Below are positions 180-57,768 of a stretch of 57,768 nt of DNA, one piece after another (within the stretch, counting starts at the first letter, position 1; each line of letters begins with the position of its first letter). Source of the stretch: Betaproteobacteria bacterium (GTDB taxonomy: Bacteria; Pseudomonadota; Gammaproteobacteria; Burkholderiales; Casimicrobiaceae); contig JANMDS010000163.1 in NCBI GenBank assembly GCA_031376405.1, positions 1-57,768 of the forward strand. The letters run 5' to 3'. The notes beneath the pieces are model-generated. The model was given only the letters and a program-made list of their open reading frames with translations, searched no databases and was not told the origin of the DNA. The position numbers and the translations under genes are program-made.

Positions 180-211
180 TTTTGCGCAAGCGAAAAAAAT
201 CGTGATTTTCC

Positions 212-253
212 GGGGAGATAATATTCAAAAATGGCTGGCTTTGCGCCGCAGGT
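212..253 (-). repeat. Repeat unit (42-nt family), reverse orientation; a degenerate partner arm lies upstream (about 180-211)
   Basis: ggggagataatattcaaaaatggctggctttgcgccgcaggt. Confidence 0.8.
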
Positions 254-277
254 TTAGAGCGGTCTTACCGCTTACCT

Positions 278-1774
278 TCACACCAACACGATATCGTATT
301 GCTCTTGGTTGTAGGCCGTCTCCACCTGCATGGAAATGCGTTTGCCCAATGATTTTTCGAGTTCGATGAGCGTGGGCGCCTCCTCATCTAAAAAGCAATC
401 AATCACCTGTTGGGATGCCATGATGCGAAACTCGATGGGGTTGAATTGTCGGGCTTCGCGGATGAGTTCGCGCATGATTTCGTAACACACAGTTTGCGCG
501 GTTTTGAGCTCGCCACGCCCAGCGCAGGTGGGGCAAGGTTCGCAGATCACATGCGCGAGCGATTCGCGCGTGCGTTTGCGCGTCATCTCTACCAAACCCA
601 ATTGCGTGAAGCCGTTTACCGTTACCCGCGTGCGGTCACGGTCAAGTGCGCGCTTCAATTCCGAGAGCACGGCATCGCGGTGGGGCACGTAATCCATGTC
701 GATGAAATCGAGAATGATCATGCCGCCTAAATTGCGTAGACACAGTTGCCGCGCGATGGCTTGCGCGGCTTCCAAGTTGGTTTTGAAAATAGTATCGTCG
801 AAATTGCGCAGCCCTACGAATCCGCCAGTGTTCACATCTACCGTAGTCAGCGCTTCGGTTTGGTCGATGATGAGATACCCACCGGACTTTAAATCCACGC
901 GCCGCTGCAGCGCTTTTTGGATTTCTTCCTCTACGTTATACAAATCAAAAAGCGGGCGCTCGCCGGCGTAGGCGTGGATGCGATCGACCATCGCCACCGA
1001 ATATTCCTGGGCAAACTCGCGCATGTGTTGGAACGTGGCTTGCGAATCGACGAGAATGCGCGAGGTGCTCTCCGAAACATAATCGCGCATGATCCGTTGG
1101 GCCAAAGTTAAATCTTGATGGACGCAGCTCGTAGCGGGCATCGTGCGCGCCCGCTCGCACACATCTTTCCAAAGCTTCGTTAAGTATTCAACGTCATGCT
1201 TCAACTCTTCTTCGCTGGCGATCTCCGCCATCGTGCGGATGATGAAGCCGCCTTTTATGTCTGGCGGCAGTAAATGCTGCAAGCGCTCGCGCAGCTCGGC
1301 GCGCTCGGCTTCATCTTCAATGCGTTGCGAAATGCCGATATGCGAATCTTGCGGCAGAAACACCAAAAAGCGCCCAGCGAGACTAATTTGCATCGTCAGC
1401 CGCGCGCCTTTGCTGCCAATGGGGTCTTTAATCACTTGCACAAGGATGGGTTGGCCCTCGTGCAGTATTTTTTCAATCGGTTTGTGGTCGGTTTGTGAGG
1501 AAGGCAGGCCGCTTTTTTTGCCGCCGTTACTTGGGTGCGGCAGGTTGTTGTCCCACACATCGGCGACGTGCAAAAAACCGGCGCGATCGAGCCCAATTTC
1601 AATAAAAGCCGATTGCATGCCCGGCAACACGCGCCCAACTTTCCCCAAATAAATATTGCTTACCAGGCCACGCGCCCGCGCCCGCTCTATGTGCAGCTCC
1701 TGCACTACAGCATGATCGAGCACCGCCACCCGCGTTTCGCGGGGGGTGACGTTGATGAGGATTTCTTCTGACAA
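278..1774 (-). CDS. rng: Ribonuclease G (RNase E/G family)
   Basis: 498 aa. It has an N-terminal S1-like segment (NIYLGKVGRVLPGMQSAFIEIG), an RNase E/G catalytic core (GGMIILDFIDM) and a CPxCxGxG zinc-link (CEPCPTCAGRG). The size fits RNase G rather than RNase E. Confidence 0.9.
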   Translation of the reverse strand: MSEEILINVTPRETRVAVLDHAVVQELHIERARARGLVSNIYLGKVGRVLPGMQSAFIEIGLDRAGFLHVADVWDNNLPHPSNGGKKSGLPSSQTDHKPIEKILHEGQPILVQVIKDPIGSKGARLTMQISLAGRFLVFLPQDSHIGISQRIEDEAERAELRERLQHLLPPDIKGGFIIRTMAEIASEEELKHDVEYLTKLWKDVCERARTMPATSCVHQDLTLAQRIMRDYVSESTSRILVDSQATFQHMREFAQEYSVAMVDRIHAYAGERPLFDLYNVEEEIQKALQRRVDLKSGGYLIIDQTEALTTVDVNTGGFVGLRNFDDTIFKTNLEAAQAIARQLCLRNLGGMIILDFIDMDYVPHRDAVLSELKRALDRDRTRVTVNGFTQLGLVEMTRKRTRESLAHVICEPCPTCAGRGELKTAQTVCYEIMRELIREARQFNPIEFRIMASQQVIDCFLDEEAPTLIELEKSLGKRISMQVETAYNQEQYDIVLV

Positions 1775-1820
1775 GTCGTGCGTCCTAGTGCAGGCATTGC
1801 GCTGCAGGTGATACCGAATA

Positions 1821-2435
1821 TTACGTCAGATCAATGCCCACACGACGCAACAGCTCAGCCGTTTCAAATAGCGGCAATCCCACCACCCCGGAATAGCTGC
1901 CCTCAATGCGCTCCACCCACATGGCCGCTTTGCCCTGTATGCCGTAGGAGCCCGCTTTGTCCATCGGCTCGCCGGAGGCTACGTAACTGGAAATTTCCAT
2001 ATCGTTGATGTCACGAAAACGCACGCGCGTGTTCGAAATATCGTGAAAAGTTTGAATGCCGTTGGTGACGGCCACGGCGGTAATCACGTCATGCACGCCC
2101 CCAGAAAGCGTGCGAAGCGTGGCCATCGCATCCATCGCTGTGGCCGGTTTGCCAATGATTTTGCCGTTGTGCACAACTATGGTGTCGGCAGTGAGCAACG
2201 GCTTGTTATGCAAACGGCGCTGCCCGATACGAAGCCAGCCGATTTCACATTTAATTTTCGCCATGCGCTCGACGTAGGTGAAAGGGGACTCGCCTGGACG
2301 CGGCGTTTCGTCGACATCGCGCGAACGGGTCGTGCCTTCGCGCAAATGCACCACGGACACCATGATGCCGATTTGTTGCAGGAGCTCCAGACGCCGCGGA
2401 CTTTTTGATGCAAGATAAATTTCGTTTTGAGCCAT
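1821..2435 (-). CDS. maf: Maf-like nucleoside triphosphate pyrophosphatase
   Basis: 204 aa. It has the N-terminal ASKSPRRLELL signature and the C-terminal DKAGSYGIQG motif, and sits between rng and rlmH as in many proteobacteria. Confidence 0.85.
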   Translation of the reverse strand: MAQNEIYLASKSPRRLELLQQIGIMVSVVHLREGTTRSRDVDETPRPGESPFTYVERMAKIKCEIGWLRIGQRRLHNKPLLTADTIVVHNGKIIGKPATAMDAMATLRTLSGGVHDVITAVAVTNGIQTFHDISNTRVRFRDINDMEISSYVASGEPMDKAGSYGIQGKAAMWVERIEGSYSGVVGLPLFETAELLRRVGIDLT

Positions 2436-2510
2436 GTGCTGTAAGCGCTACGTTGCATAAATCCCACCCGCGGCGCTACCCCGATGTCATTATATGGAGA
2501 CACTATACCG

Positions 2511-2981
2511 CTAATCCCGGTGATATGGATGCCCTTGCGCCAAGGAAATTGCACGGTAAAGTTGCTCTGTTGCCACGATGCGCGCCAAACCATGCGGCAA
2601 GGTGAGCGCGGAGAGCGACCACTGCCAGGTGGCGCTGCGTTTGAGCGCCGCGTCGAGGCCATCGGCGCTGCCAATCACAAACACCGTTTCGGCGTGTTCC
2701 TGGGCGGTGGCGGTGAGTTTTTCAGAAAGCGCGCGGGAGGTGAGGCTCAGGCCGCGCTCGTCTAAGGTCACCAACGCCGCCCCGCGCGGGATGTGTGCGC
2801 GAATTTTCTGGGCTTCTTCGGCGAGCAAAATTTCGGTGGCCCGGCCCTCGGTGCGCTTTTCCGGCTTCAGCTCCACCAACGTAAACGGCCACGCCCGTCC
2901 GAAACGCTTGCTGTACTCCTCGCCTGCCTCCACCACCCAGCGCGGCTGGTTGTAGCCTAGGCAAACAAGCGTAATACGCAC
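2511..2981 (-). CDS. rlmH: 23S rRNA (pseudouridine1915-N3)-methyltransferase RlmH (SPOUT)
   Basis: 156 aa with a GTG start. It has EYSKRF near the N-terminus and the C-terminal LPHGLARIVATEQLYRA..GHPYHR typical of RlmH. It lies directly downstream of rsfS. Confidence 0.88.
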   Translation of the reverse strand: MRITLVCLGYNQPRWVVEAGEEYSKRFGRAWPFTLVELKPEKRTEGRATEILLAEEAQKIRAHIPRGAALVTLDERGLSLTSRALSEKLTATAQEHAETVFVIGSADGLDAALKRSATWQWSLSALTLPHGLARIVATEQLYRAISLAQGHPYHRD

Positions 2982-3008
2982 GGCGTGGTTTGTTGCACGG
3001 GGGCGAGC

Positions 3009-3653
3009 TTACGCCTCTTTCAAGCGACGGCGCACTGCGGCAGGTGCGGCTTTTTTCGCAGCAGGTGCTTTCACCGCTGGCGCTTTAGTTGCCGGCGCTT
3101 TTTTCGCCACTACTTTCTTTGTTGCGGGCGTTTTCACAGCAGCGGCTTTCTCGGCAGGCTTTGTCGACGCGGGTGCTTTTGTGGCTGCCACTTTTTTAGC
3201 TAACGGTTTTTTCGTCGCTAGTTTTTTCGCAGCCTTTGGGGCGGGCGTGGCAGCAGGCGCAGCGGTCTTGGGCGGCTTAAGTTTTGTAACGGCTTTTTTC
3301 GCGGGCGCAGCGTTGGTCGCGCGCGTAGGCTCGGGCGGCGTCCACAGTTCTTCTAGGTTGTAGTACGTGCGCACGTTTGGCTGCATGATGTGGACCACAA
3401 AATCAGCGCAATCCACCAACACCCAATCACCGGACTCTTCGCCTTCGGTGCCCACGATCGTGCCGCCGTTGGCTTTCACCTCTTCGCGCACGTTGTTGGC
3501 CAGTGCCTTGGTTTGCCGCGCCGATTCGGCTGTGGCAATAATCAACGTGTCGTACAACGAAGTTTGTTTCCGCACATCAAGTACGAGAATGTCGCGCGCT
3601 TTAATATCTTCCAGAGCAGTTACCGCAATTTTGGTCAGTTTGTCGAGACGCAT
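3009..3653 (-). CDS. rsfS: Ribosome silencing factor RsfS with a ~100-aa Lys/Ala/Pro-rich C-terminal extension
   Basis: The first ~110 aa (LEDIKARDILVLDVRKQTSLYDTLIIATAESARQ...DWVLVDCADFVVHIMQP..R.YYNLEELW) match the RsfS/iojap fold. Residues ~111-214 are AKKA/KAPA-type low-complexity repeats. Confidence 0.85.
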   Translation of the reverse strand: MRLDKLTKIAVTALEDIKARDILVLDVRKQTSLYDTLIIATAESARQTKALANNVREEVKANGGTIVGTEGEESGDWVLVDCADFVVHIMQPNVRTYYNLEELWTPPEPTRATNAAPAKKAVTKLKPPKTAAPAATPAPKAAKKLATKKPLAKKVAATKAPASTKPAEKAAAVKTPATKKVVAKKAPATKAPAVKAPAAKKAAPAAVRRRLKEA

Positions 3654-3694
3654 GTTGTGTTCAAGCCTTAATCAGGCCTACAGTTTACTCGCCG

Positions 3695-3760
3695 ATACCG
3701 CGAAAACGCGCGCTTTTTGAGGAGATAAATCCTTAAAAATGCCGTTTTTGCGCCGCAGGT
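3695..3760. repeat. Head-to-head repeat pair with a degenerate left end
   Basis: ataccgcgaaaacgcgcgctttttgaggagataaatccttaaaaatgccgtttttgcgccgcaggt. Confidence 0.8.
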
Positions 3761-3762
3761 TT

Positions 3763-4119
3763 TTACTGTTTTAGTTCGACAGCCCAGCCGTTGACCGAGC
3801 CGATATACGCCCACATCGCGTCGAGCTCGCCTGGCTTTAAGCTACTTTCCCAAGCGGGCATCGCGCGTATTCCTTTGTTGACACTTTGGACGAAACGCTC
3901 TTTTGCATCCGCAGGAAACGCGCGCAGATCGCTGCCTAGGCCGTTGGAGACTAAATTTAGCCCGTGGCAGCGGGCACACATAAGCGTGTAGCGGCTGCGG
4001 CCTTGCCCAATGAGCTGCGCCGCGCCATCGTTCGCCGCCGGCGCAACAACCGTCGGCGCGGGCGAAGGCGTGCTAGGCGTTTGCGCGCAGCCGGTGACGG
4101 CAATGCACGCAAAGACCAT
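3763..4119 (-). CDS. Class I c-type cytochrome, predicted lipoprotein; likely electron acceptor of the adjacent PQQ dehydrogenase
   Basis: An internal ATG at 4119 gives MVFACIAVTGCAQ.. with a lipobox-like VTGC. There is a single CxxCH (CARCH) and a distal AMPAW Met ligand. The longer tracked ORF (to 4314) overlaps the upstream gene and was trimmed. Confidence 0.75.
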   Translation of the reverse strand: MVFACIAVTGCAQTPSTPSPAPTVVAPAANDGAAQLIGQGRSRYTLMCARCHGLNLVSNGLGSDLRAFPADAKERFVQSVNKGIRAMPAWESSLKPGELDAMWAYIGSVNGWAVELKQ

Positions 4120-4133
4120 TGCGACCGCGTATT

Positions 4134-5843
4134 TCAACGCTTCAGCGCAAACGTCCACAACGAGCCGCCAGCGGCCACGTTGGTCACATCTGGATCGCCG
4201 CCGAGCGCGGCATACACCGTGCCCGAGCCACTGGTGACGGTAATATATTGCACGCCGTTGCGCTCCCAGGCGATGGGCAAACCGGAAATGCCCGAGCCCG
4301 TTTGGAACCGCCAAAGCACTTTGCCGTCGCTGGCATCAAACGCCATGAGCGCGCCGGTTTGCGAGCCGCTGAACACCACGCCGCCCTTGGTTGAGAGTAC
4401 GCCGCTCCAATGCGGTGATTTTGTTGTGGCTTCCCAAACTTTACGGTTGCGAATCGGGTCCCACGCCATCAGCGCGCCACGGTTGCCATCGTCGGGGCCG
4501 ACGAAGCCGCCGAGCTCTAAGCCCAACCACCAATTCGGCCCGCCGGGGCGCTCTTGTTTAACGTACTTCACTTTCATGCCCACGTTTACGGTGTTCATGA
4601 ATACCAAATTGCGCGAAGGATCGAAGCTCATCGGCATCCAATTTTTTCCGCCAAACGCGCTCGGCCACGCCTCAATAAAATCCGCTCCCACTTCGGTTTT
4701 ACGCAGGCCCGCGGTCATCGGCGTGTCAATCGGGCGGCCCGTGTTTTGATCGATACCAGTGGCCCAATTTATTTTTTTGGCAAACGGCTGAGCAGAGATA
4801 AATTTGCCGTTGGTGCGGTTGATCACGTAGAAAAATCCATTGCGATTGGCTTGCATTAATACTTTGGCGGTGCCCCCGCTCATCGGCAAATCCGCGAGTA
4901 CGAGCTCATTGGTGCCATCGTAGTCAAACGGGTCGCCCGGCGAAAATTGAAAGTGCCACACAATTTCGCCCGAGCTGGGGCGAATGGCCAACACAGAATT
5001 GATGTAGAGCGAATCGCCGCCGCGCGTAGCCGGGTTCCACGGTGAGCCGTTGCCTGTGCCCCAATAGACCAAATCGAGCTCAGGGTCATACGTGCCGGTG
5101 AGCCACGTTGTCGCCCCGCCGTTGATCGCGATGCCAGGGTTCCACGTGTCGCCGCCTTTTTCACCTGGCAACGCGGTGGTAAAGCGCTTCCATTTTTCTT
5201 GGCCGGTTTTCAAATCCCAGCCCGTTAAAAATCCGCGCGCGCCATACTCGCCGCCGCTAATGCCCGTGATGAGCACGCCGCCCGCAATCAACGGCGCGTG
5301 GGTCAAGCTGTAGCCGCCTTTGTAGTCCGCCGCCTTCGAGCGCCAGAGCACTTTGCCATCCGTCGCGTTCATCGCCATCACATGGGCATCAATGCTCGTG
5401 CGGTAGAGCACGCCATCGAGCGCAGCCAACCCACGGGTGTGAATGCCGCAACACAAATAGGCGTTAATGTCAGAGGGAATCTCAAGCGCCGTTTTCCATT
5501 TCTGCCGCCCCGTGAGCGGGTCGAGCGCGATGGTGTGGGAGTGGGTGGTGATGTACATCGTGTCGCCGATTAAGAGCGGCTGGCTCGACGCATTGGCTGA
5601 ATTGTCCAAGCTCAAATTCCACGTTGGCACCAAATCTTTCACGTTCTGCGGCGTAATCTGGCCCCCGGTTGCGTGCCGTTGCTGGCTCCAGCCCATGCCG
5701 TAAGTGGTGATATCGCCCGCCGTTTGCGCATCTTGGCGCAAATCATTCATGGTTTGCGCTACGCACGCACTCGCAGCGAATAGAGAACCCAACACCAACG
5801 CCCATACACCGCGTTTAGAACCTAACTGCCTTTGCCGCCACAT
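4134..5843 (-). CDS. PQQ-dependent dehydrogenase, methanol/ethanol family (quinoprotein), secreted
   Basis: 569 aa with a signal peptide. It has the vicinal Cys pair (YLCCGIHTRG), GGEYGARGF, W-rich propeller repeats and a DPFDYDG catalytic-Asp region. A cytochrome c gene follows immediately. Confidence 0.85.
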   Translation of the reverse strand: MWRQRQLGSKRGVWALVLGSLFAASACVAQTMNDLRQDAQTAGDITTYGMGWSQQRHATGGQITPQNVKDLVPTWNLSLDNSANASSQPLLIGDTMYITTHSHTIALDPLTGRQKWKTALEIPSDINAYLCCGIHTRGLAALDGVLYRTSIDAHVMAMNATDGKVLWRSKAADYKGGYSLTHAPLIAGGVLITGISGGEYGARGFLTGWDLKTGQEKWKRFTTALPGEKGGDTWNPGIAINGGATTWLTGTYDPELDLVYWGTGNGSPWNPATRGGDSLYINSVLAIRPSSGEIVWHFQFSPGDPFDYDGTNELVLADLPMSGGTAKVLMQANRNGFFYVINRTNGKFISAQPFAKKINWATGIDQNTGRPIDTPMTAGLRKTEVGADFIEAWPSAFGGKNWMPMSFDPSRNLVFMNTVNVGMKVKYVKQERPGGPNWWLGLELGGFVGPDDGNRGALMAWDPIRNRKVWEATTKSPHWSGVLSTKGGVVFSGSQTGALMAFDASDGKVLWRFQTGSGISGLPIAWERNGVQYITVTSGSGTVYAALGGDPDVTNVAAGGSLWTFALKR

Positions 5844-5949
5844 GGAAAATCTCCTTAGGTTGATGTACTAAATACAAGCACTATCTCGCACTCGCGTCTC
5901 TGCAATATAGTGCGTTTTAATCACAAGCACAATACGCGGCGCGTCAAAA

Positions 5950-6017
5950 ACCTGCGGCGTAAAACCGGCACTTTTTGGACATTATCCCCGTAAAAAACCT
6001 GTTTTTTGGGATTCGCG
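5950..6017. repeat. Repeat unit (forward) plus a degenerate partner arm
   Basis: acctgcggcgtaaaaccggcactttttggacattatcccc, followed by gtaaaaaacctgttttttgggattcgcg. Confidence 0.8.
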
Positions 6018-6162
6018 ATGGCGCGCGCGCCGACCACTTACGCGCAAAAGCAAAGCCTTGGCGACGCCAGGGTGCGCTTCATCGCACGCGCCTAGAACGG
6101 CGATCGAATGCGCAATAAAAAGCGAACATTGCACTCAACATATACGAAAGCGCGGCACCCCC

Positions 6163-7269
6163 ATGAACGCATTTAATTTTTTCGCACCCCTACTCAAAAT
6201 CCACGCGACACGCGCACTATTGGCCGCCCTAGTTGTGCTGCCTGCGGGCGCGCACGCCCAAATTGGCTGGTCAGAATTTAAAACTGATGCGCTTAACGTA
6301 ACCCTCGTTTATCCAACCGATGTGGTGGGCCAAAAAACGCGCTTCAGCACCTTTGAGCTCGATGTGGCCGTGGACGCGCCGATTTCTGCGGGGGGGCCAC
6401 GCCGGTTAATCGTCATGTCCCACGGCGCGGGCGGAAGCGTTTTGTCGGATCACACACAAGCCGCCACGTTCGCCCGCGCGGGGTTCGTCGTTGCCCAGCC
6501 TCTGCACGCGGGCGACAACTTTCGCGATAGCGCCAAGAGCGGGCCTGGGAGTTGGGTTACGCGCCCCATGGAAATTTCCGCAGTCATTGATGCGCTGGCC
6601 GCGCATGCGCAATGGCGTTCGGCGTTGCAGCTAGATCGCGTGGGCGTACACGGCATGTCCGCTGGCGGGGCCACCGCGCTCATGCTCGCCGGTGCGCGCT
6701 GGCGCACGCTTGGGCTGCTGCAACATTGCAGCGCCAATCTCGATGCCGATGCTGGGTTTTGCTTCAACGGCATGACCGATCCCGCGCAACAAGCCCAACG
6801 CAAAGCGCAATATCTAAGCGTGAAAGGCGTTCCAGAAGCCTTTTTGCCTGCGAGCATTACAACGTGGAATGGCGGCAATGGCTTCGAAACCGACCCGCGC
6901 GCGGACAAGCGGATCGTCTCGGTGAGCGCAACCGTGCCGGTATCGGCGATTTTCTCCGTTGAAAGTTTGGCGCGAATAAACCTTCCGGTAGGCATCGTCG
7001 CCGCCGAAGCCGATACGATGCTAAAGCCCGCGTTTCACTCCGACTATGTGATGAAGCACTGCAAAGCCTGCATGCTTGTCGACAGCGTTCCAGGCGCGTC
7101 GCATTTGGACATGCTGCACCCGTGGCCCGCTAACGTAGCGGCGCAAACCGCGCGCACGCAGCCCATCGGAGCGGAGCTGAACGCGCAGTTCGACCCCGCC
7201 CGCCGCAGCGCTGCCTACACAAAAATTGCGCAATTCCATATGAAAAATTTGATCGACGCGAAACAGTAA
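6163..7269 (+). CDS. Secreted alpha/beta hydrolase (dienelactone hydrolase / PAF-acetylhydrolase-like)
   Basis: Start trimmed to the ATG at 6163 (MNAFNFFAPLLKIHATRALLAALVVLPAGAHAQ, a signal peptide). It has a GxSxG nucleophile elbow (GVHGMSAGG) and a late His (GASHLDM). Confidence 0.6.
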   Translation: MNAFNFFAPLLKIHATRALLAALVVLPAGAHAQIGWSEFKTDALNVTLVYPTDVVGQKTRFSTFELDVAVDAPISAGGPRRLIVMSHGAGGSVLSDHTQAATFARAGFVVAQPLHAGDNFRDSAKSGPGSWVTRPMEISAVIDALAAHAQWRSALQLDRVGVHGMSAGGATALMLAGARWRTLGLLQHCSANLDADAGFCFNGMTDPAQQAQRKAQYLSVKGVPEAFLPASITTWNGGNGFETDPRADKRIVSVSATVPVSAIFSVESLARINLPVGIVAAEADTMLKPAFHSDYVMKHCKACMLVDSVPGASHLDMLHPWPANVAAQTARTQPIGAELNAQFDPARRSAAYTKIAQFHMKNLIDAKQ

Positions 7270-7279
7270 ACCGCGAAAT

Positions 7280-7350
7280 ACCTGCGGCGAAAAAACAAGC
7301 ATTTTTGGAACGTATCTCCCTAAAAAAGGGTCACTTTTTGGCCTGCGTAT
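7280..7350. repeat. Repeat unit (forward) plus a degenerate partner arm
   Basis: acctgcggcgaaaaaacaagcatttttggaacgtatctccc, followed by taaaaaagggtcactttttggcctgcgtat. Confidence 0.8.
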
Positions 7351-7465
7351 GCGGCGCGAACCTGTCGCGATACGGGTACATCTTAATAAGAGCGTCAACG
7401 CCCCTCCCCGTTCTACGTTATCGTTACGTGTACGTCCGATTTAGGACGTTTGAAAGGCTCTGGCA

Positions 7466-9364
7466 ATGATGATGAACTCTGTGTTTTCCCGACTACTTCT
7501 GGGTGCGGCAGCTTTGGTGAGCGCTACGCTTAGCTGGGCAGATCCGCCCTCGCGCGTGGGCCGCTTGGCGGTGTATGGCGGTGAAGTCATGGTCGCCCTT
7601 GCTGGCGTTGTGGGGCGCGCGTTTACCAACAATTACCCCATTCCCGATCGCTACAATGTGTACGTGGGCCCACCGGGCCGCGCCGAGGTGGATTTCGGCT
7701 CCGGTTTGGCGTGGCTCTCCGGCGGCACTACGCTGTATTTTGAGCGGCTCGACGATCACCACTTGCGTGCGCGCATGGCCGACGGTGTACTGGTGGTGCG
7801 CTTGCGTGAGCTAGACCGTGGTGAAACCGCGCGCATCGATACCCGCAATGGCAGCATTGATCTGACTACGCCTGGCTTGTATCGCGTAGAAACCGGCCGC
7901 AATAACGATTCCCGTGGTGATTTAGTGCATGTGAAATATGGCAACGCCGAGCTGGCAACCGGCGCGAATTTTCAATCGTTGCGCGGTGGCGATGCAGCAG
8001 AATTTAGCGGCAATCGTCTCGGATTTCTAAATATTCGTGGCGATGATGCGTTTGGCGCATGGGTTGATTCCCGCGATCGTCGCTACGAAAATCAACGCTA
8101 TGCTTACGTGAGCCCCAACATGGTGGGTTGGCGTGATTTAGATGAGCACGGCATGTGGCGCGAAATGTCCAACTACGGTTGGGTGTGGTTCCCCCGTCGG
8201 GTTGCCAGCGATTGGGCGCCATACCGGTTCGGTAACTGGACCTTCGTCGCACCGTGGGGATGGACTTGGGTGGATGACGCGCCGTGGGGCTTTGCACCAT
8301 CGCACTACGGGCGTTGGGTCAACCTCAATGGTCGCTGGGGCTGGACGCCAGGGGCATTTGAGCGTCGCCCTGTGTACTCGCCAGCGTTGGTGGCGTGGCA
8401 AGGCAATGTCGGCGGCGCCTCGCTTTCGGTGAACATCGGTAACTCGCTGGTCTATTGGACGCCGCTTTCGTGGGGCGAAGCGTACTACCCGAGCTACACC
8501 GTGAGCGCCAATTACTGGCGCTTGGCGAACCGACCGTTCGTGCATCCATCGGTGGAGTACAGCGTTGCCCCGCCGCGCGGCAATGTGTACCGAAATTGGA
8601 ATGCACCGAATGGCGCAACCGCAGTGGAAGCGGCGGTCGTTGCCTCGGCGCGTCCGGTAGCGCCCGTAGCCCGTGCAATGGGGCCGTTGCCGACCACTTC
8701 GCAAGTGGAAGCGTACCCCATTATGGATCGCATTAAGCCTGCTTACGGTGGCGCGCCGACGCAGCAATATCGTGCGCCCGCACAGCAACCACAGCAGCCA
8801 GTGATGGTAAACGAAGCGGCAACAGTACGGGCAGTACCGGTCAACTCGGGCGCTCAGATTGTTACGCAACCCGCGCCAAATTCGGCACCCGCGCGCTCGC
8901 AACCCTTGCCACCGCTCGCGCCGCCCACGGTGATGACGCAGCCGCAAGTGGTGCGCGAGCAAGGCGCGCCGATGCAGCAAATGCCGCAGCAAGTGCAGCA
9001 GCAGATGCAGCAACAGATGCAGCAACAGATGCAACCGCCACCGCAGCCAGCCCAAAACGTGCAGCGCGTGCCGGGCCAGATGGCCCCACCGTCGCGCGCG
9101 ATGGCATCTGGTGCAGCCGCACCGGTGCCGGTGCAGCCGCAAATTCAACCGCAACCGCAACCAAGCGATAACCGCCGCGTTGCGCCCGCGCAAGGTCGGG
9201 GTGAAGCACCGGTGCAGCGTGTGGAGCAGCCGTATGTGGAGCCCATCCCGCGCGCGCCGCGCGCCATGCCTGCCATGCCCGCACGCACAATGCCCGCGCA
9301 AGTGCAAGCCGATCAAGCCCGCCGCGCCAGCGACGAAAAAGAGGGCGATAAGCCCAAGCGCTAG
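7466..9364 (+). CDS. Secreted protein with a FecR-like N-terminal region, a Trp-rich central repeat region and a Pro/Gln-rich tail (resembles the DUF6600-type family)
   Basis: 632 aa with a signal peptide ending SWADPP. It contains PSRVGRLAVYGGEV..., the W-rich block GWVWFPRRV..WAPYRFGNWTFVAPWGWTWVDDAPWGFAPSHYGRWV, and a low-complexity C-terminus (QQMQQQMQQQMQPPPQP, PQIQPQPQP). The family name is from memory only. Confidence 0.6.
   Translation: MMMNSVFSRLLLGAAALVSATLSWADPPSRVGRLAVYGGEVMVALAGVVGRAFTNNYPIPDRYNVYVGPPGRAEVDFGSGLAWLSGGTTLYFERLDDHHLRARMADGVLVVRLRELDRGETARIDTRNGSIDLTTPGLYRVETGRNNDSRGDLVHVKYGNAELATGANFQSLRGGDAAEFSGNRLGFLNIRGDDAFGAWVDSRDRRYENQRYAYVSPNMVGWRDLDEHGMWREMSNYGWVWFPRRVASDWAPYRFGNWTFVAPWGWTWVDDAPWGFAPSHYGRWVNLNGRWGWTPGAFERRPVYSPALVAWQGNVGGASLSVNIGNSLVYWTPLSWGEAYYPSYTVSANYWRLANRPFVHPSVEYSVAPPRGNVYRNWNAPNGATAVEAAVVASARPVAPVARAMGPLPTTSQVEAYPIMDRIKPAYGGAPTQQYRAPAQQPQQPVMVNEAATVRAVPVNSGAQIVTQPAPNSAPARSQPLPPLAPPTVMTQPQVVREQGAPMQQMPQQVQQQMQQQMQQQMQPPPQPAQNVQRVPGQMAPPSRAMASGAAAPVPVQPQIQPQPQPSDNRRVAPAQGRGEAPVQRVEQPYVEPIPRAPRAMPAMPARTMPAQVQADQARRASDEKEGDKPKR
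8996..9035 (+). repeat. Tandem 12-nt coding repeat (CAGCAACAGATG x3, encoding QQQM) inside 7466-9364
   Basis: The DNA reads cagcagcagatgcagcaacagatgcagcaacagatgcaa and translates to QQQMQQQMQQQMQ. Confidence 0.8.
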
Positions 9365-9380
9365 TCACATAGCAATGCCA

Positions 9381-9409
9381 AAAGCCCCGGCTACCCGGGG
9401 CTTTTTTTT
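9381..9409 (+). terminator. Intrinsic terminator downstream of 7466-9364, fused to a repeat unit
   Basis: AAAGCCCCGG-CTAC-CCGGGGCTTTTTTTTT: a GC-rich 7-8-bp stem followed by a T9 run. The T run continues directly into GGCAGATAAG of repeat unit 9410-9450. Confidence 0.8.
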
Positions 9410-9450
9410 GGCAGATAAGTTTGAAAATAGGCTTGTTTTACGCCGCAGGT
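9410..9450 (-). repeat. Repeat unit, reverse orientation, abutting a terminator
   Basis: ggcagataagtttgaaaataggcttgttttacgccgcaggt. Confidence 0.8.
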
Positions 9451-9483
9451 ATTGGGTTTACGCAATGGCGGTAACATGTACGC

Positions 9484-9942
9484 ATGAGCGCACATATCCA
9501 TCAATTCGTTTTACTTCTCCACTTGCTTGCCGCCATCTTCTGGCTCGGTGGTATGGCCACCATTTTGTTTTGTGTGCGCCCGGCTGCGTTGAGCGTTTTG
9601 GCCGCGCCGCAGCCCATTGCGCTACTCCACGCCACGCTCGCGCGATTTTTAAAATACGTCGCTCTTGCGATGGCGGTTTTGCTCATCACCGGCATTCATC
9701 TCTACGGCTTGCGCGGTGGCATGGGCGCGCGCTGGGGCGTGCACGTTATGGCGCTCGGCGGCATCGTGATGATGCTCATCTACGGCAACCTGCGCTTTTC
9801 GGCGTTTAAGAAATTAGACGCTGCGGTGAAAACCCAAACCTGGAGCGAAGGCAAAGCCGCGCTCGATCAAATTCGCAAGCTCGTGCTGGTGAATTTGGTG
9901 TTAGGCGTGGTGATTGTTGCGGCGGTGAAGCTGGGGGTTTAA
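9484..9942 (+). CDS. Small integral membrane protein, CopD-like family
   Basis: 152 aa with four predicted TM helices. The HLLAAIFWLGGM motif in TM1 is typical of CopD-domain proteins. Confidence 0.45.
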   Translation: MSAHIHQFVLLLHLLAAIFWLGGMATILFCVRPAALSVLAAPQPIALLHATLARFLKYVALAMAVLLITGIHLYGLRGGMGARWGVHVMALGGIVMMLIYGNLRFSAFKKLDAAVKTQTWSEGKAALDQIRKLVLVNLVLGVVIVAAVKLGV

Positions 9943-9950
9943 GTTAATAA

Positions 9951-9992
9951 ACCTGCGGCGTAAAAACAGCGTTTTTTAGGATTTATCTACCC
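9951..9992 (+). repeat. Repeat unit, forward; its degenerate partner arm runs into the moeB 3' end
   Basis: acctgcggcgtaaaaacagcgttttttaggatttatctaccc. Confidence 0.8.
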
Positions 9993-10005
9993 AAAAACGC
10001 AACGT

Positions 10006-10855: not shown

Positions 10856-10922
10856 TTACGGCGCAAAAACAGTGTTTTTCTAGGAGATAACGTCTAGAAA
10901 GCACTGTTTTTACGCCGCAGGT
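10856..10922. repeat. Head-to-head repeat pair with a truncated left outer end
   Basis: ttacggcgcaaaaacagtgtttttctaggagataacgtctagaaagcactgtttttacgccgcaggt. Confidence 0.85.
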
Positions 10923-10937
10923 ATTACGGAGTAGAAC

Positions 10938-12561: not shown

Positions 12562-13260
12562 ATGAATCGCAAAATGATCGTTGCAGCGGCGTTGGCCGCG
12601 TTTGGTTGGGGCGGTGTTTCGGCCACCACGGTGGAAGTGCTGGCCGTTGCTAAAGGCGGCGTTACGCTCAAGATCGACGGACGTGCCCCCAAAACGCTTT
12701 ATCCCGGCGACTTCACGCCCGAAGGCGTGTATGTGCAAGGGCTTACTCGCACGGGGGAGGCCATGCTGCGTATACGTGGCACGGAAGAAGTCATGCCAGC
12801 CGGTAGAACGGTGGTCGCCGCGCCGAACGTGGCCGGGCTGCCCGCACTCAATATTCCGAGAGATGTTGACGGAAAATTTATTGCGCAATTTTTGCTTCTA
12901 AACCAGCCGTTTCAAGTAGAAATCGACCCGAAATCCCCTGCCGGACTGCTTTTGCCCACCGCCGATGCCGAGCGGGTGCAGCTGCCTTATAAAGATCCGC
13001 CCCCGCCGAAGGGCGAAGAGAGCAAAAAGCGCAAAAGCGAATTTTCGCGTCCCAACAAGCGTTTTTTAAAGGGTAAGCCGTTTTACGATCACTACACCAC
13101 CGCTAAATCAGTGAAAGTGGGCGGGATTGAGCTTTTTGGGGTGAAAACTACCGTCAGTGAGCATCCCGAGCTCAAGCGGGCCGTAGCGGGGCGGGCATTT
13201 TTAATGCTGATGGATACAACCTGGGAAGGCTCCACGATGACGGTGCGGCGTTTGCCGTAG
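12562..13260 (+). CDS. Secreted retropepsin-like (clan AA, TIGR02281-like) domain protein with a degenerate active-site motif
   Basis: 232 aa with a signal peptide. NIPRDVDGKFIAQFLLLNQPFQVEIDPKSPAGLLLPTADAERVQL parallels IPRDxxGHF..ING....FLVDTGA..V.L....A.RLGL, but DTGA is replaced by DPKSPAG. The C-terminal VKVGGIELFGVK..AGRAFL matches the second retropepsin block. Confidence 0.45.
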   Translation: MNRKMIVAAALAAFGWGGVSATTVEVLAVAKGGVTLKIDGRAPKTLYPGDFTPEGVYVQGLTRTGEAMLRIRGTEEVMPAGRTVVAAPNVAGLPALNIPRDVDGKFIAQFLLLNQPFQVEIDPKSPAGLLLPTADAERVQLPYKDPPPPKGEESKKRKSEFSRPNKRFLKGKPFYDHYTTAKSVKVGGIELFGVKTTVSEHPELKRAVAGRAFLMLMDTTWEGSTMTVRRLP

Positions 13261-13299
13261 TTTTAAGAATAGGCCGCGCTCGCTACAATGCGTGCCATT

Positions 13300-13373
13300 G
13301 CGGGTGTAGTTCAATGGCAGAACGGAAGCTTCCCAAGCTTCATACGAGGGTTCGATTCCCTTCACCCGCTCCA
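13300..13373 (+). tRNA. tRNA-Gly (anticodon CCC)
   Basis: Hand-folded cloverleaf: acceptor GCGGGTG/CACCCGC, D arm GTTC..GAAC, anticodon stem GAAGC/GCTTC with loop TTCCCAA, T arm GAGGG-TTCGATT-CCCTT, and an encoded CCA. Confidence 0.9.
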
Positions 13374-13388
13374 AAACCCCCATTTTTC

Positions 13389-13429: not shown

Positions 13430-13553
13430 ATTCCATGTAGGTGCACTTCTGCGCACCGTCGCACGCCTGCAACACTGCGCGCACGCCCTACGCCTCCGCC
13501 CGAACCAAACCCACGATATCGGCTCTAAACTGAGTATTGAAAGGCGGGTTTGC

Positions 13554-45266: not shown

Positions 45267-45311
45267 CCACGCATAAGAAACTTGTGCCTCAGTCAATGCT
45301 CAGTTCGACGA

Positions 45312-46475
45312 CTAGGCTGTGCCAATATTCCCGACCGCAGTGCTCCAATCCCATCTATGCTTTGGATCTGCCCGTTGGGTATCAAGCGCCTCACCCACGG
45401 AAACAAGCAATGATTTCCTTCCTTCTTCCCCAAGTAGGACGCAGCAATGCTCTAGGAGTTCGAGGGCACCAACAATATAGATATTTAGTCCGAGCGAGAA
45501 TTGATTATTTACTATTTTTTGAATTGCCTCGATATCAGAATATAGCGGGCTAGTTCGCGTGGGGCGGTGGACAAAAAAAAGCAGCTCTGTCACGTTTGAG
45601 AGCCGCGCTTTCCGAACGCTACTCTCCATTTCGGCCGATGTCAATTCTCGATCTTTAACCTCCAAAGTGAGAAGATTTTTTCCATCGAGAACGCACTCGA
45701 TGTCACCTGCGCTAAGCGAGGCGGAGTCCGCCGCATTTACGTGACCCGAAGCAATTTCGCCGAGACTAAGCCCCCGCTTTTTGAGTGCAATAAGCAATCC
45801 GTATGCGACCGCCTGTAATCGTGCTCCGCCGGAAGACTTTTTAAGATATTCCTCGATACAACCAACAGTATTTATCAAACTTACTCTTTGTGGAATCGCG
45901 TAATCGAACTTTTTCCCAACCAGATAGATCCTTAGCTGCGCCAACACAATTTTTAGACTTTCCGTAACGTCTTCCGTGGAGGTAGCCGCCTGCGCATGCT
46001 CTAGTACCGTCAATACCGCATCAAAGACTACCGGCTTCCTTCGACCTTTTCGCATCGATGCATCGAATCTAGGATTGCGAAAGATATTATTGACATAAGG
46101 GTCTTCAGAGTCGCCGAGCGGCGCGCCAATGCTCTTGTTCCAAACTACTACGACCCGTTTCGCAAACTCTCTCGGTTCCCAGCTGCCGGTCTGACCAGCC
46201 CCTTTTTGCAAGCAAAGTGCGTCTAGGTTAAAGTTCGCGACTTTTCCTGCAATTTGGTTGACGATGGTGTATTTCCACCCAATTTCGCTTTGGTCAAACA
46301 CACTGCGAATCGTTTCCGAAAGTTCATTAGTCGGTAGCCGATCAATAGGCGTTGCCTCTATTTCGGACCAAGCAGAATATAGAATCGACAGCGCATTTTG
46401 TTCGAAGGACTGCTTGTCCGAAGGTGAATCTGAACTCTTGCTCTTCGCCATACCTGTTTTCTTCCACGTTGACAT
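45312..46475 (-). CDS. Putative type II restriction endonuclease (PD-(D/E)xK candidate), convergent with the methyltransferase
   Basis: 387 aa on AT-rich DNA. A candidate catalytic motif is GD-IECVLDGKNLLTL-EVK (D..ExK). It lies tail-to-tail with the m5C MTase across a 45-nt gap. The family was not identified. Confidence 0.55.
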   Translation of the reverse strand: MSTWKKTGMAKSKSSDSPSDKQSFEQNALSILYSAWSEIEATPIDRLPTNELSETIRSVFDQSEIGWKYTIVNQIAGKVANFNLDALCLQKGAGQTGSWEPREFAKRVVVVWNKSIGAPLGDSEDPYVNNIFRNPRFDASMRKGRRKPVVFDAVLTVLEHAQAATSTEDVTESLKIVLAQLRIYLVGKKFDYAIPQRVSLINTVGCIEEYLKKSSGGARLQAVAYGLLIALKKRGLSLGEIASGHVNAADSASLSAGDIECVLDGKNLLTLEVKDRELTSAEMESSVRKARLSNVTELLFFVHRPTRTSPLYSDIEAIQKIVNNQFSLGLNIYIVGALELLEHCCVLLGEEGRKSLLVSVGEALDTQRADPKHRWDWSTAVGNIGTA

Positions 46476-46628: not shown

Positions 46629-46693
46629 AGGGTCTAAAAAATGCGGTTTTTGAGGAGATAAGTTTTAAAAAGTGCCGTTTTTACGCCGCAGGT
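46629..46693. repeat. Head-to-head repeat pair with a degenerate left outer end, at the right edge of the R-M islet
   Basis: agggtctaaaaaatgcggtttttgaggagataagttttaaaaagtgccgtttttacgccgcaggt. Confidence 0.85.
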
Positions 46694-46778
46694 TTTTTCG
46701 CTTTTTGTGCATCGCGCACAATCAAATGTGTTCCCGTGTACAGTGTGCGTTGGTAGCAAATCGTTTTAGGAGCACATC

Positions 46779-54777: not shown

Positions 54778-54959
54778 GCTTGGGATGCCGTAGGCGTTAA
54801 CCTAAAGTACACCAAAGCAAACCCAAGATTGTAGCGGGAGGCCGCCCGTCGGGTCAATGCGACGGTTCGTTTTCTTCAAACTTTATGCCAGATTGGCATT
54901 GACTCGGAGCGAAACATTAAAGGCAAATTGCACCAAAACAAGGCAGATTACTGATTTTC

Positions 54960-55001
54960 GGGGAGATAATGCCGAAAAAGTGCTCCGTTTACGCCGCAGG
55001 T
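54960..55001 (-). repeat. Repeat unit, reverse orientation
   Basis: ggggagataatgccgaaaaagtgctccgtttacgccgcaggt. Confidence 0.85.
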
Positions 55002-55155
55002 TGTGCGTTTTGGTGAGCGCTTAAAGCTTCGAGACGTGAGTCTTCGTAAACTGTTGGCAATACGGCAGGTTTGGGAACGCCACGCTCTTCGGTACGCGTG
55101 AATCCGCGCCAGCGCCGAGGCGAAACCGAACACGAATCACGGGGATTTCAATTAC

Positions 55156-56277: not shown

Positions 56278-56287
56278 TTCTCAAAAT

Positions 56288-56355
56288 ACCTGCGGCGCAA
56301 AACCCGCATTTTTTGGGAGATATCATCCAGAAACTGTCTTTTTTACGCCGCAGGT
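56288..56355. repeat. Complete head-to-head repeat pair
   Basis: acctgcggcgcaaaacccgcattttttgggagatatcatccagaaactgtcttttttacgccgcaggt. Confidence 0.9.
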
Positions 56356-56373
56356 ATTGGGCGCAAAACGCGC

Positions 56374-57141
56374 CTACGCCAACACCGCTAATGCCTGCGC
56401 GAGCAAAGCCGCGCCGGTGGCGGCGAGCACTTTTCCTTCCGATGTGATCGAAAGCGGCGCACCCGCCCAATCTGAAATCGCCCCGCCCGCGCCTTGTACG
56501 ATGGGTACGAGCGCCATGAAATCGTAGGGCTTTAAGTCCGCTTCGGCGATAACGTCTACAAAACCACACGCCAACATCCCGTAGCTGTAGCAATCGCCGC
56601 CGTAAATCATGGACTTCACTTTTTGCGTGAACCTTTGGTGCGCGGGCCAGTCGTGCGTCCATTGTGCGGGCGTGGTGGTGGCGGCAATCGCCTCGTCGAT
56701 CGCCACTTGCGCACGCACGTTGCATGGCGTGTTGTTAAACGTAGTGAACTTGCCTGCGCAACCTACCCAGCGCTCTTCGGTAATAGGTTGATCGATGATG
56801 CCAAGCACAGGCTGTCCCCAGTGGGCAAGGGCGATGAGCGTGCCAAACGTGGCCCGTCCGGTTATAAAGCTTTTAGTACCATCAATCGGGTCGAGCACCC
56901 ACACCCACTCGGCGTGCACGTTTACGTCTCCATGCTCTTCGCCCAAGATGCCGTGTTCGGGCAGATTACGCCGCAAATACGCCACCATCGCCGCTTCGAT
57001 TTCCTGATCGGCGATAGTCACCGGCGAGGCATCGCCTTTGCGCTCCACCGTGAGTGGCTGGCGAAAATATTTTTTTGCAATCGGGCGCGCGATGTCGGCT
57101 AAATCGTGGGCGGCGACAAGAAAATCGGAGGACTCAGACAT
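56374..57141 (-). CDS. Inositol monophosphatase family protein (possibly a HisN-type histidinol-phosphatase)
   Basis: 255 aa. It has GEE, WVLDPIDGTKSF and GGDCYSYG motifs of the IMPase/FBPase fold. Confidence 0.8.
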   Translation of the reverse strand: MSESSDFLVAAHDLADIARPIAKKYFRQPLTVERKGDASPVTIADQEIEAAMVAYLRRNLPEHGILGEEHGDVNVHAEWVWVLDPIDGTKSFITGRATFGTLIALAHWGQPVLGIIDQPITEERWVGCAGKFTTFNNTPCNVRAQVAIDEAIAATTTPAQWTHDWPAHQRFTQKVKSMIYGGDCYSYGMLACGFVDVIAEADLKPYDFMALVPIVQGAGGAISDWAGAPLSITSEGKVLAATGAALLAQALAVLA

Positions 57142-57208
57142 TGCAATAGATTATTATGGAGGGTTAAATGATTTACGCAACTACGCAACCATTGTAAGGA
57201 GCTTCAAA

Positions 57209-57712
57209 ATGATTTCAGCAGGCGAAAGACTTCCCGCAGGCACGCTTTACGAATCGCCCGGCCACGACGATGGCAAAAACTGCCCGATGCCGCCCCAGCC
57301 GGTGGACATGGCCGCTGCCGCAGCAGGGCGCAAGATTGTGATTTTTGGCTTGCCCGGCGCCTACACACCAACGTGTTCAGCGCAGCACGTACCGAGCTAT
57401 CTTAAAAATTTAGATGCATTAAAAGCCAAAGGCGTAGCCGAAGTGTTTTGTATGTCGGTTAACGACGGCTTCGTAATGGGCGCCTGGGGCCGCTCGCAAG
57501 GCACAGACGGCAAAGTGCGCATGGTGGGCGACGGCAGCGCGGCGTTTACCAAAGCATTGGGTTTGGAGCTCGATCTTACGGCGCGTGGCATGGGCGTGCG
57601 TTGCGACCGCTTCGCGATGATTGTGGACAATGGTGTGGTCACACACATCGCCAAAGAAGCGCCGGGGAAATTTGAAGTATCTTCAGGCGACGCGATTTTG
57701 GCGAAGCTGTAA
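57209..57712 (+). CDS. Peroxiredoxin (Prx5/type II subfamily)
   Basis: Start trimmed to the ATG at 57209 with an AAGGA RBS. It has FGLPGAYTPTCSAQHVP with the peroxidatic Cys. The upstream part of the tracked ORF is antisense to the IMPase gene. Confidence 0.85.
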   Translation: MISAGERLPAGTLYESPGHDDGKNCPMPPQPVDMAAAAAGRKIVIFGLPGAYTPTCSAQHVPSYLKNLDALKAKGVAEVFCMSVNDGFVMGAWGRSQGTDGKVRMVGDGSAAFTKALGLELDLTARGMGVRCDRFAMIVDNGVVTHIAKEAPGKFEVSSGDAILAKL

Positions 57713-57729
57713 ATAAATAAACCCTCGAT

Positions 57730-57768
57730 ACCTGCGGCGCAAAAAGGCCGTTTTTTAGGAGATATCTC
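57730..57768 (+). repeat. Repeat unit, forward, cut by the window end
   Basis: acctgcggcgcaaaaaggccgttttttaggagatatctc. Confidence 0.85.

Follow-up and report, generated by a model that had tools for sequence, protein, structure and literature searches.

Uptake sequences are known only from the Neisseriaceae and the Pasteurellaceae, both of which are associated with animal hosts (bioRxiv 10.1101/2025.10.24.684340). They have a core of 9–12 nt that recurs about once per kb on both strands, with 34.5–65% of copies in open reading frames (ORFs), where they occupy poorly conserved residues or variable loops in preferred frames, and recently acquired genes lack them (PMC2817400). According to Kingsford et al., the extended motifs of both the uptake signal sequences (USS) of Pasteurellaceae and the DNA uptake sequences (DUS) of Neisseriaceae start with A residues, and inverted pairs prefer the +− order, with fixed spacings that keep the motif and terminator hairpins that carry A/T tails (PMC1852404). 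The USS of Haemophilus influenzae has a critical inner core, GCGG, and helically phased T-rich flanking tracts (PMC3458573); DUS form dialects among relatives (PMC3630211; bioRxiv 10.1101/2025.10.24.684340), all of which conserve CTG (bioRxiv 10.1101/2025.10.24.684340). Here we describe a repeat family with comparable properties in a contig of an uncultured betaproteobacterium (GenBank JANMDS010000163.1, assembly GCA_031376405.1), analysed over its whole stretch of 57,768 nt (the window). Each copy starts with the 10-mer ACCTGCGGCG or a close variant (the head), which in most units listed here is followed by a conserved tail. The abundance of the repeat, its origin in place, its dialects, strand use, reading frames and pair geometry match the descriptions of USS and DUS, and we therefore propose, with a probability of roughly 0.55, that it is a DNA-uptake-enhancing sequence analogous to them in an uncultured, freshwater, Burkholderiales-like lineage.

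A dispersed, hyper-abundant repeat family

The head occurs in 26 exact copies in the window and is its most frequent 10-mer; the next-commonest 10-mers are all overlapping frames of the same word. With up to one mismatch there are 42 occurrences, compared with 9.5 ± 2.8 in dinucleotide-preserving shuffles, none of which (0 of 100) reached 42. An nhmmer profile of the ~50-nt unit (positions −3 to +48) produced 27 matches with E < 1e-5 at ~25 loci, about one per 2.3 kb, whereas 20 Markov-1 random windows produced 0–1 matches each at E ≤ 10. These counts, all made on the window and well above those of shuffled and random sequence, confirm a single dispersed and hyper-abundant family at the unusually high density (one locus per 2–2.5 kb) given in a preliminary description of this DNA. 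That description placed a unit in almost every spacer, which proved an overstatement, as units are present in 18 of the 37 spacers of at least 45 nt. They are lacking from the interiors of the liv and atp operons and between 43679 and 46629, the place of a low-GC restriction-modification island (~43.7–46.6 kb).

For comparison, related loci were fetched around orthologues of moeB, rfaC and mnmE, and abundance was examined in fragments totalling ~60–70 kb per lineage. Both strands are used about equally, with 12 and 13 heads on the two strands of the window and 8/8, 8/9, 8/6 and 4/6 on other contigs, so that strand counts are equal within single contigs and no polarity of the Chi/KOPS type is seen. 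Around dnaA in a related contig (L013), orientations are mixed on the well-sampled side and the other side has only two copies, with no switch in polarity. No Rfam family was found at the units, the only matches in the window being a tRNA and an anti-hemB RNA, and a literature search for the 10-mer returned only primers and constructs. What is strongly over-represented is a word of double-stranded DNA, on both strands and in genes as well as in spacers.

The position table of 23 copies yields the consensus aA(a/t)-ACCTGCGGCG-y-AAAA-(n)ggc(n)-TTTTT-n5-TTATCTCC-n3-AAAAA, running from −3 to +47 and longer than the ~42 nt of the preliminary description. The ~47-bp unit consists of the head (1–10), an A-tract (12–15), a T-tract (24–27), the block TTATCTCC (33–40) and a second A-tract (44–47), and in 23 units the offset of TTATCTCC (≤2 mismatches) relative to the head start is always 32, free of indels. 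At the end of the unit the A-tract is invariant at positions 45–47, followed by a weaker T-tract at 55–57 and a faint second, inverted head at 61–64. The core of the head is (A)ATACCTGCGGCG(CA), with TGCGGC as its least variable part, and in the small sample of one-mismatch members changes fall mostly at head positions 1–3 and 10. The A/T tracts begin at about 12, 24, 33, 44 and 55, a period of ~10.7 nt that puts them on one face of the helix. The outer ends had been taken for recognised termini, far better conserved than the middle; the inner block and the A/T tracts are about as conserved, and what stands of this claim is that the GC-rich outer end is the recognised part and the one best conserved across lineages: the head, in the form aATACCTGCGGCGCA, is common to several of them and is the only part common to all related lineages that carry the family.

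Single units do not fold appreciably, with z-scores mostly between −1.5 and +0.8 relative to shuffled sequence, so the small hairpin earlier ascribed to each unit is unsupported. Pairing of head positions 4–8 with 17–21, or of the A-tract with the T-tract, was considered and rejected, because these stems pair only in part and reach the same energies as shuffles; a terminator scan detects only a few copies. Inverted pairs, by contrast, have folding z-scores of −6 to −15. Eighteen are of the +− (head-outward) type versus 2 of the −+ type, and their length is 68–70 nt in the long dialects and 47–50 nt in the short one. The palindrome is fixed at 68–70 nt because two facing units overlap for the best fit of both 47-nt motifs: on either strand the centre GGAGATATCTCC meets TTATCTCC, with position 33 sacrificed, and paired copies do have A there. 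As an A or AT precedes each head, the pairs are flanked by A- and T-runs. Of four head-to-head pairs first listed as hairpins in the window, three fold strongly, namely 40005–40072 (−43.4 kcal/mol, z = −8.5, the strongest hairpin), 56288–56355 (−35.2 kcal/mol, z = −6.0) and 10856–10922 (−31.9 kcal/mol, z = −6.7); the left arm of the fourth, 46629–46693, has decayed and no significant fold is left (z = −0.5).

This architecture might also be that of a binding site for an abundant intracellular factor, nucleoid-structuring or termination-associated, in which case each copy would be under local selection, the pairs would be terminators and the repeat would have no role in uptake. The rigid, indel-free bipartite geometry with its A/T tracts on one face would then be a protein footprint of ~4.5 turns, and the strong folding of the pairs between A/T-run flanks, the distance of only 3–25 nt that separates many heads from the preceding stop codon and the retention of several units at orthologous positions all agree with it. 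Such a factor fits less well with a quarter to half of the copies lying in coding sequence, with divergent (promoter) spacers being occupied as often as 3' spacers, with the position of the strongest hairpin (40005–40072) in a divergent spacer, and with the unstructured single units. To our knowledge, no intracellular factor maintains thousands of near-invariant 10–18-mers, and the only documented cases we know of with this combination of features are uptake sequences. We consider a binding site of this kind unlikely.

Copies inside genes and at orthologous sites

The preliminary description treated the repeat as intergenic and overlooked that 6 of 25 exact heads (24%) lie within protein-coding genes of the window, four of them with a clear tail (TTATCTCC, ≤1 mismatch). 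Complete units are found within rfaC, mnmE, an FAD oxidoreductase gene, tctC and an ORF of the PMT_2 glycosyltransferase family, and in the metagenome-assembled genome (MAG) GCA_031430575.1, 23 of 47 heads (49%) are within called genes. Alignments of orthologues reveal no unit-sized (14-codon) insertion at in-gene units, which sit in variable loops with small indels only, of one codon in rfaC and eight in mnmE.

In rfaC, the unit at 39458–39507 (−, sense strand; E = 5.2e-12, this and all further E values being those of the nhmmer profile) encodes IPAAQNSYGLQLISQ, a stretch that aligns with residues of E. coli WaaC, the window protein being six residues shorter there. In family-free relatives it aligns with VPPQRD-YGLRFSD and similar stretches, with one extra codon; in DNA terms the window has ATACCTGCGGCGCAAAAC where the related locus L010 has CTGCCCCTCGGGCAGAAC, and rfaC of L008 carries its own dialect (...CAGAATT) at the homologous codons. 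In mnmE, the head of the antisense unit at 31076–31125 (+; E = 1.7e-13) encodes APQV at identical codons in the window, P0241 and L012, while L013, which has no head, has APLV. The mnmE of L012 bears its own tail with no change in length. An insertion of eight codons (codons ~313–322, 31100–31150) distinguishes the window and P0241, a 90% relative, from 83% relatives and coincides exactly with the tail of the unit. This 24-nt insertion may be a local duplication, and it means that not every step was a point substitution.

The unit at 25741–25788 (−, sense strand; E = 6.1e-10) encodes TCGANLTDLANYLQ in an FAD-dependent oxidoreductase that is collinear with NCBIfam NF009477 (14–573 versus 12–573 of 578). 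The PMT_2-family ORF has an antisense unit with a good head and a weak tail at 29721–29769 (+; E = 1e-5), the orthologue of which is 12323(−) in L012. A head with A/T tracts at 42648–42679 (−; E = 9.8e-7) falls in the signal-peptide coding part of tctC, where it encodes TCGAILAFF, and the tctC-family gene of L008 has TCGAVLAIF in its signal-peptide region. A unit at 35067–35114 (+; E = 1e-9) encodes TPAAQNEAVVQVISE in the 5' part of the ftsY ORF, the true start codon of which is uncertain. In-gene copies use reading frames unevenly (TCGA 8, PAAQ 8, antisense APQV 6, CAAG 2, LRRK 1 and the arginine-rich RRR 0), a bias with a chi-square p of 0.008, or 0.02 without orthologous duplicates. Over 31 poorly conserved positions, the most similar pair of copies shares 22, versus 18.8 ± 1.1 in column shuffles. 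The copies are near-independent draws, with no sign of recent copying or bursts. The alignments show a repeat that arises and persists where it stands, chiefly through point substitutions with some small local indels, and not by block insertion.

The tails are lineage-specific and fall into at least three dialects. The GGAGATATCTCC-centred tail is found in the window, in L007 and in the phage contig L001, a tail of the ..AAATC.. type in L003 and L012, and only the 18-mer ATACCTGCGGCGCAGATT in MAG GCA_031430575.1 (contigs L002, L005, L008 and L013). In this MAG the head is the top 10-mer, with 53 exact copies in 71 kb (0.75 per kb); in L003, L007 and L012 it is among three near-tied, overlapping top 10-mers (30–32 copies), and its density across lineages is 0.43–0.81 per kb. 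Related loci without the family are L006 (MoeB 80% identical) and L010 (RfaC 62%). Among genome contigs, the full unit pattern matched at least one locus, which pointed to the MAG. As background, 836 kb of unrelated metagenome contigs, each retrieved through one chance 15-mer copy, held seven further heads (~0.01 per kb), none with the extended motif, and scans of metagenomes and viruses with the 14–15-nt head gave nearly exclusively isolated chance matches, with L001 as the only contig of the clade. Confinement to a single region is excluded for the MAG by its four contigs. For the genome of the window itself the evidence is indirect: in the source run, Logan contigs are interrupted at units or pass from one unit to another, 12 of them diverging just behind position 3764, which implies many more copies in that sample.

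At orthologous intergenic units (in the ctpA/moeB spacer and ahead of the AP-endonuclease gene), the head is kept and the tail is that of the respective lineage; orthologous sites offer no clean presence or absence of a whole unit, and tails diverge gradually. That the tails of a lineage change together, also at orthologous sites, might reflect another sequence-specific drive, for example head-seeded short-patch gene conversion or a repair bias tied to a DNA-modifying enzyme that recognises ACCTGC, the sequence recognised by BspMI, a type IIS enzyme. Copying from another unit would also explain the mnmE tail with its 24-nt insertion. Yet the variable positions are nearly independent between copies, which argues against the copying of whole tracts, and no linked enzyme was seen; we know of repair biases only for words of 4–8 nt, such as HIP1 in cyanobacteria, and not for asymmetric motifs of 18–47 nt. 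A drive of this sort is, in our view, improbable.

The in-place units in genes, the lineage-specific tails, the independence of copies and the unfolded single units do not support the element mobilised as a block, similar to repetitive extragenic palindromes (REPs) and bacterial interspersed mosaic elements (BIMEs) or to miniature inverted-repeat transposable elements (MITEs), for which the repeat was first taken. On sequence grounds the family is best read as something other than a mobile element. A mobile-element proposal would have the units be REPs and the pairs REPINs (hairpin-forming REP doublets), mobilised in trans by a REP-associated tyrosine transposase (RAYT), an IS200/IS605-like Y1 transposase encoded elsewhere in the genome. 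High copy number, mostly intergenic placement, hairpin-forming inverted doublets and vertical persistence at orthologous sites, as reported for REPINs, are what it predicts, and a single-copy RAYT gene could easily lie outside the available sequence. It is nevertheless hard to reconcile with single units that are neither palindromic nor folded, with heads and units in genes that came without a unit-sized insertion, with a lineage that has the 18-mer only, half of it in genes, and with the lack of clusters of near-identical copies. The Pfam lists for related loci and the annotated ORFs of the window, a small part of each genome, contain neither a Y1 nor another transposase, in line with the earlier observation that the window has no transposase or RAYT gene. 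REPs, REPINs and BIMEs share with this family their shortness, abundance, mostly intergenic position, folding inverted doublets and long vertical inheritance, but REPs are individually palindromic, strictly extragenic and RAYT-linked, whereas the single units here are unfolded and many lie in genes. Mobilisation by a RAYT is improbable as well.

Less credible still, and already largely refuted, is the interpretation of the 68-nt palindrome as a MITE with terminal inverted repeats ACCTGCGGCGYAAAA and of single units as its decayed halves. It would account for the terminal inverted repeats and uniform 68–70 nt of the pairs and for the decayed second arm behind many single units. However, terminal inverted repeats are confined to pairs, inspection of the pair flanks by eye (not formally scored) revealed no target-site duplications, and the dependence of pair length on dialect is as expected from the overlap of two extended motifs. 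Clean empty sites are lacking, the orthologous spacer of a family-free lineage being 17 nt of unrelated sequence, copies within genes arose in place, and there were no recent bursts of copying. Correia elements and other MITEs are likewise intergenic, of uniform short length, with terminal inverted repeats and possible effects on transcription; in contrast to them, half-units and bare heads are here far commoner than full elements.

A candidate DNA-uptake-enhancing sequence

If the repeat enhances DNA uptake, competent cells would bind and import DNA that carries the word, likely through a receptor associated with the type IV pilus. Sequence-specific receptors of known systems are ComP in Neisseriaceae and, as predicted, ComN in Pasteurellaceae. 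The phased A/T tracts may ease bending of the DNA, and uptake would prefer fragments with ATACCTGCGGCGCA over scrambled DNA. Biased uptake together with homologous recombination would amount to a molecular drive that fixes match-improving mutations wherever coding or regulatory constraints permit, and some of the inverted pairs behind genes may have been recruited as bidirectional intrinsic terminators, like those of Neisseria and Haemophilus. Uptake, receptor and termination are what we infer from these patterns.

The resemblance to the USS of Pasteurellaceae (Hin type aAAGTGCGGT with two phased A/T tracts) extends to a GC-rich core containing GCGG (TGCGG in common), preceded by A residues, and to A/T tracts one turn apart (PMC3458573), to a density of ~0.5–0.8 per kb on both strands and in-gene copies at variable residues with a frame bias (PMC2817400), and to inverted pairs with motif-preserving spacings in putative terminators (PMC1852404). 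Unlike USS, the repeat belongs to a betaproteobacterial host with a GC content of 56%, and has a different core sequence and, in the lineage of the window, an extended motif of ~47 bp with a second specific block, TTATCTCC, at a rigid distance. With the DUS of Neisseriaceae (for example AT-GCCGTCTGAA and the AG-eikDUS AGGCTACCTGAA) it has in common a betaproteobacterial host, a 10–12-nt word with CTG and an A-rich 5' flank, lineage dialects (PMC3630211; bioRxiv 10.1101/2025.10.24.684340), +− pairs in terminator-like hairpins (PMC1852404) and about a quarter to half of copies in genes. It departs from DUS in that conservation lies 3' of CTG (CGGCGCA) and not 5' of it, and in the long A/T-phased tails of two dialects.

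As only CTG and GCGG are shared and the host lies outside both families, we do not class the repeat as a dialect of DUS or USS. The core CTGCGG nevertheless contains both the GCGG of the H. influenzae USS and the CTG of all DUS dialects, and as an uptake signal the repeat would be a third such system. A bolder and more doubtful proposal is that this unrecognised system joins the essential CTG of DUS to the essential GCGG of USS, with phased tracts of the Haemophilus style that extend in one sub-lineage to a bipartite signal of 47 bp; it might then stand between DUS and USS recognition in evolution and bind a related minor pilin as its receptor. Our literature search on uptake sequences in Burkholderiales-type bacteria outside the Neisseriaceae found nothing. 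The lack of units in the restriction-modification island agrees with the lack of uptake sequences reported for recently acquired genes (PMC2817400). Identification of the repeat as a sigma-54 promoter (GGCAC...), an IHF site, a DnaA box, a dif/Xer site, an attC site, a CRISPR repeat or a Chi/KOPS sequence was dropped on inspection by eye, because motif or geometry did not fit or polarity was absent.

Several observations weigh against an uptake sequence. The host, known from freshwater-sediment metagenomes, is uncultured. Competence-type genes in the related loci are limited to two ATPases, one of the TfpB/PilB (type IV pilus) type and one of the YifB/ComM family, and to an ORF bearing a TfoX_C domain, all of which occur widely in bacteria that are not competent. 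These loci showed neither a receptor nor a dedicated competence gene, and ~205 kb of sequence from the clade contained no pilin- or ComP-like ORF. The TfoX_C ORF, located in L007, was considered as a possible Sxy/TfoX regulator and, having no NCBIfam match, is not used as evidence. A bipartite motif of 47 bp with a rigid 22-bp spacer is unprecedented, far longer than any described uptake sequence. Further, 12 of 19 intergenic heads lie directly 3' of the stop codon of a co-oriented gene, which drive alone does not predict, and the divergent-spacer position of the strongest hairpin and the eight-codon insertion in mnmE count on the same side. Lastly, the phage contig L001 has six exact heads in 9.8 kb, the density of the host, some of them within ORFs.

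Genomic setting and implications

The window is an ordinary piece of betaproteobacterial chromosome, with rng, maf, rlmH, rsfS, moeB, ctpA, panB, aroE, a liv-type ABC operon, mnmE, upp, ftsY, waaA, rfaC and the atp operon. Protein searches place it in a small uncultured clade with distant next relatives; among named ones, Casimicrobium/Casimicrobiaceae and Burkholderiales MAGs come closest, with ~59% MnmE identity, and not Neisseriaceae. Exact look-ups of its RNase G and AtpA proteins found no record. No RNA sequencing runs hold the window sequence.

In the first third of the window, single units lie at 207–255 (−; head 25 nt 3' of the rng stop codon; E = 2.6e-13), at 3714–3763 (−; directly after the stop codon of a small cytochrome c ORF and next to a decayed second arm; E = 1.8e-14), at 5947–5996 (+; in the divergent spacer between a PQQ dehydrogenase gene and ORF403; E = 1.3e-14), at 7277–7326 (+; head 11 nt 3' of the ORF403 stop codon; E = 6.9e-12), at 9404–9453 (−; between a DUF6600 gene and a copD-like gene, in the opposite orientation to both; E = 1.5e-12) and at 9949–9997 (+; convergent spacer, head 9 nt 3' of the copD-like stop codon; E = 1.4e-13). 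At 3009–3653 (−), RsfS is extended at its C terminus by ~100 residues that weakly match histone H1-like proteins of Burkholderia. The ctpA/moeB spacer holds the inverted pair 10856–10925, a 67-nt palindrome the left head of which has decayed to GTTACGGCG, and pairs are found at the orthologous place in L003 and L005. A single unit at 13383–13432 (−; E = 1.3e-10) lies 10 nt downstream of tRNA-Gly(CCC). Contig depth at 12674–14007 is 20–100 times higher than elsewhere in three metagenome runs, because this conserved tRNA gene is common to many members of the community. Single units follow at 15422–15471 (+; head GCCTGCGGCG, ahead of a GST-like ORF or within its 5' end; E = 1.7e-11) and at 16994–17043 (−; aroE/panB, the tail overlapping the annotated panB start codon; E = 4.2e-12).

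Farther on, the single unit at 24356–24405 (+; 7 nt after the stop codon of an FAD_binding_2 gene; E = 7.5e-14) is orthologous to 15926(−) in L012, the tail of which differs in the alignment. Another, with the head ATCTGCGGCG, is found at 32104–32151 (+; E = 2.6e-12) in the spacer between mnmE and a GST gene. In L012 and L013, mnmE follows dnaA-rnpA-yidC of the origin region, while in the window a GST gene is located upstream of it (30688–32765), a change of neighbourhood that points to a rearrangement next to the origin; on the other side synteny is kept (the PMT_2-family gene, a GT2 gene, an S41 peptidase gene, liv and aroE). The PMT_2-like ORF (29088–30872) overlaps the 3' end of mnmE (30688–32070) by 185 nt, compared with 83 nt in L012, so its true start is probably further downstream. 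The single unit at 36033–36082 (+; convergent spacer, 14 nt after the ftsY stop codon; E = 2e-14) corresponds to a place by a cytochrome c gene where L007 has a full pair. The stretch 37530–37605 (−), with a GTPase-like ORF on one side and waaA on the other, matches Rfam RF02837, the Burkholderia anti-hemB small RNA, with 57 bits against a gathering threshold of 49.5.

The inverted pair at 40003–40075, in the divergent rfaC/higB spacer, is a 68-nt palindrome with the centre GGGAGATATCCCC and flanks of an A-run and a T-run. At 40165–40894, a Gp49/HigB-like ORF precedes an ORF with a helix-turn-helix (HigA-like), a probable toxin–antitoxin pair, where L007 has an acetyltransferase gene upstream of rfaC. 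A head without a tail lies 18 nt after the stop codon of the higA-like ORF (40912–40921, +). Downstream of tctC, a diverged unit with a CAGAATT... tail at 41652–41685 (+; E = 5.4e-6) is orthologous to a pair in L007 (9358–9425). Also downstream of tctC, L007 has 3.2 tandem copies (9028–9374) of a 108-nt unit that are 95% identical, each beginning with the head GCGATACCTGCGGCGCAG and holding a degenerate inverted head, a tandem-amplified segment that contains a pair. The single unit at 43635–43679 (−; E = 2.6e-13), with a decayed head CTCTGCGGCG and a perfect tail, marks the edge of the restriction-modification island. At 44190–46475, genes for a Dcm-type C5 cytosine methylase and a restriction endonuclease of the SacI family are neighbours where the GC content of the window is lowest (~48%), which looks like an acquired restriction-modification island. 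Beyond it are a unit with a decayed partner arm (left end GGGTCT...) at 46629–46696 (−; E = 9.4e-15), a single unit ahead of the atp operon, in a divergent spacer (54955–55002, −; E = 3.4e-13), an inverted pair that forms a 68-nt palindrome in the convergent acyltransferase/IMPase spacer (56285–56358) and a unit cut by the end of the window 18 nt after the stop codon of a redoxin gene (57728–57768, +; E = 9.6e-11).

The phage contig L001 (IMGVR_UViG_3300043409_002969) comprises a head module at 1–9782, with small and large terminase, portal, protease and major head protein genes. It bears a 69-nt inverted pair at 5881–5949, ~265 nt downstream of the major head gene, and among the matches listed in two viral scans it is the only viral contig with several copies.

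For the annotation of genomes, this family suggests that dense repeats resembling REPs or MITEs need to be checked for copies inside genes and at orthologous sites before they are labelled mobile. The motif is a ready marker for binning the clade and tracking its strains, and donor DNA would best be given this sequence should a member of the clade ever be cultured and transformed. The shared CTG and GCGG let the question of a common origin of DUS and USS be asked, and the dialects, from an 18-mer to a phased motif of 47 bp, would be natural experiments on the co-evolution of receptor specificity and genomic motif. If the repeat is indeed an uptake sequence, transformation that prefers self DNA would shape environmental genomes too, in a third, free-living and uncultured lineage, and uptake specificity would be wider among environmental bacteria than the two host-associated families suggest.

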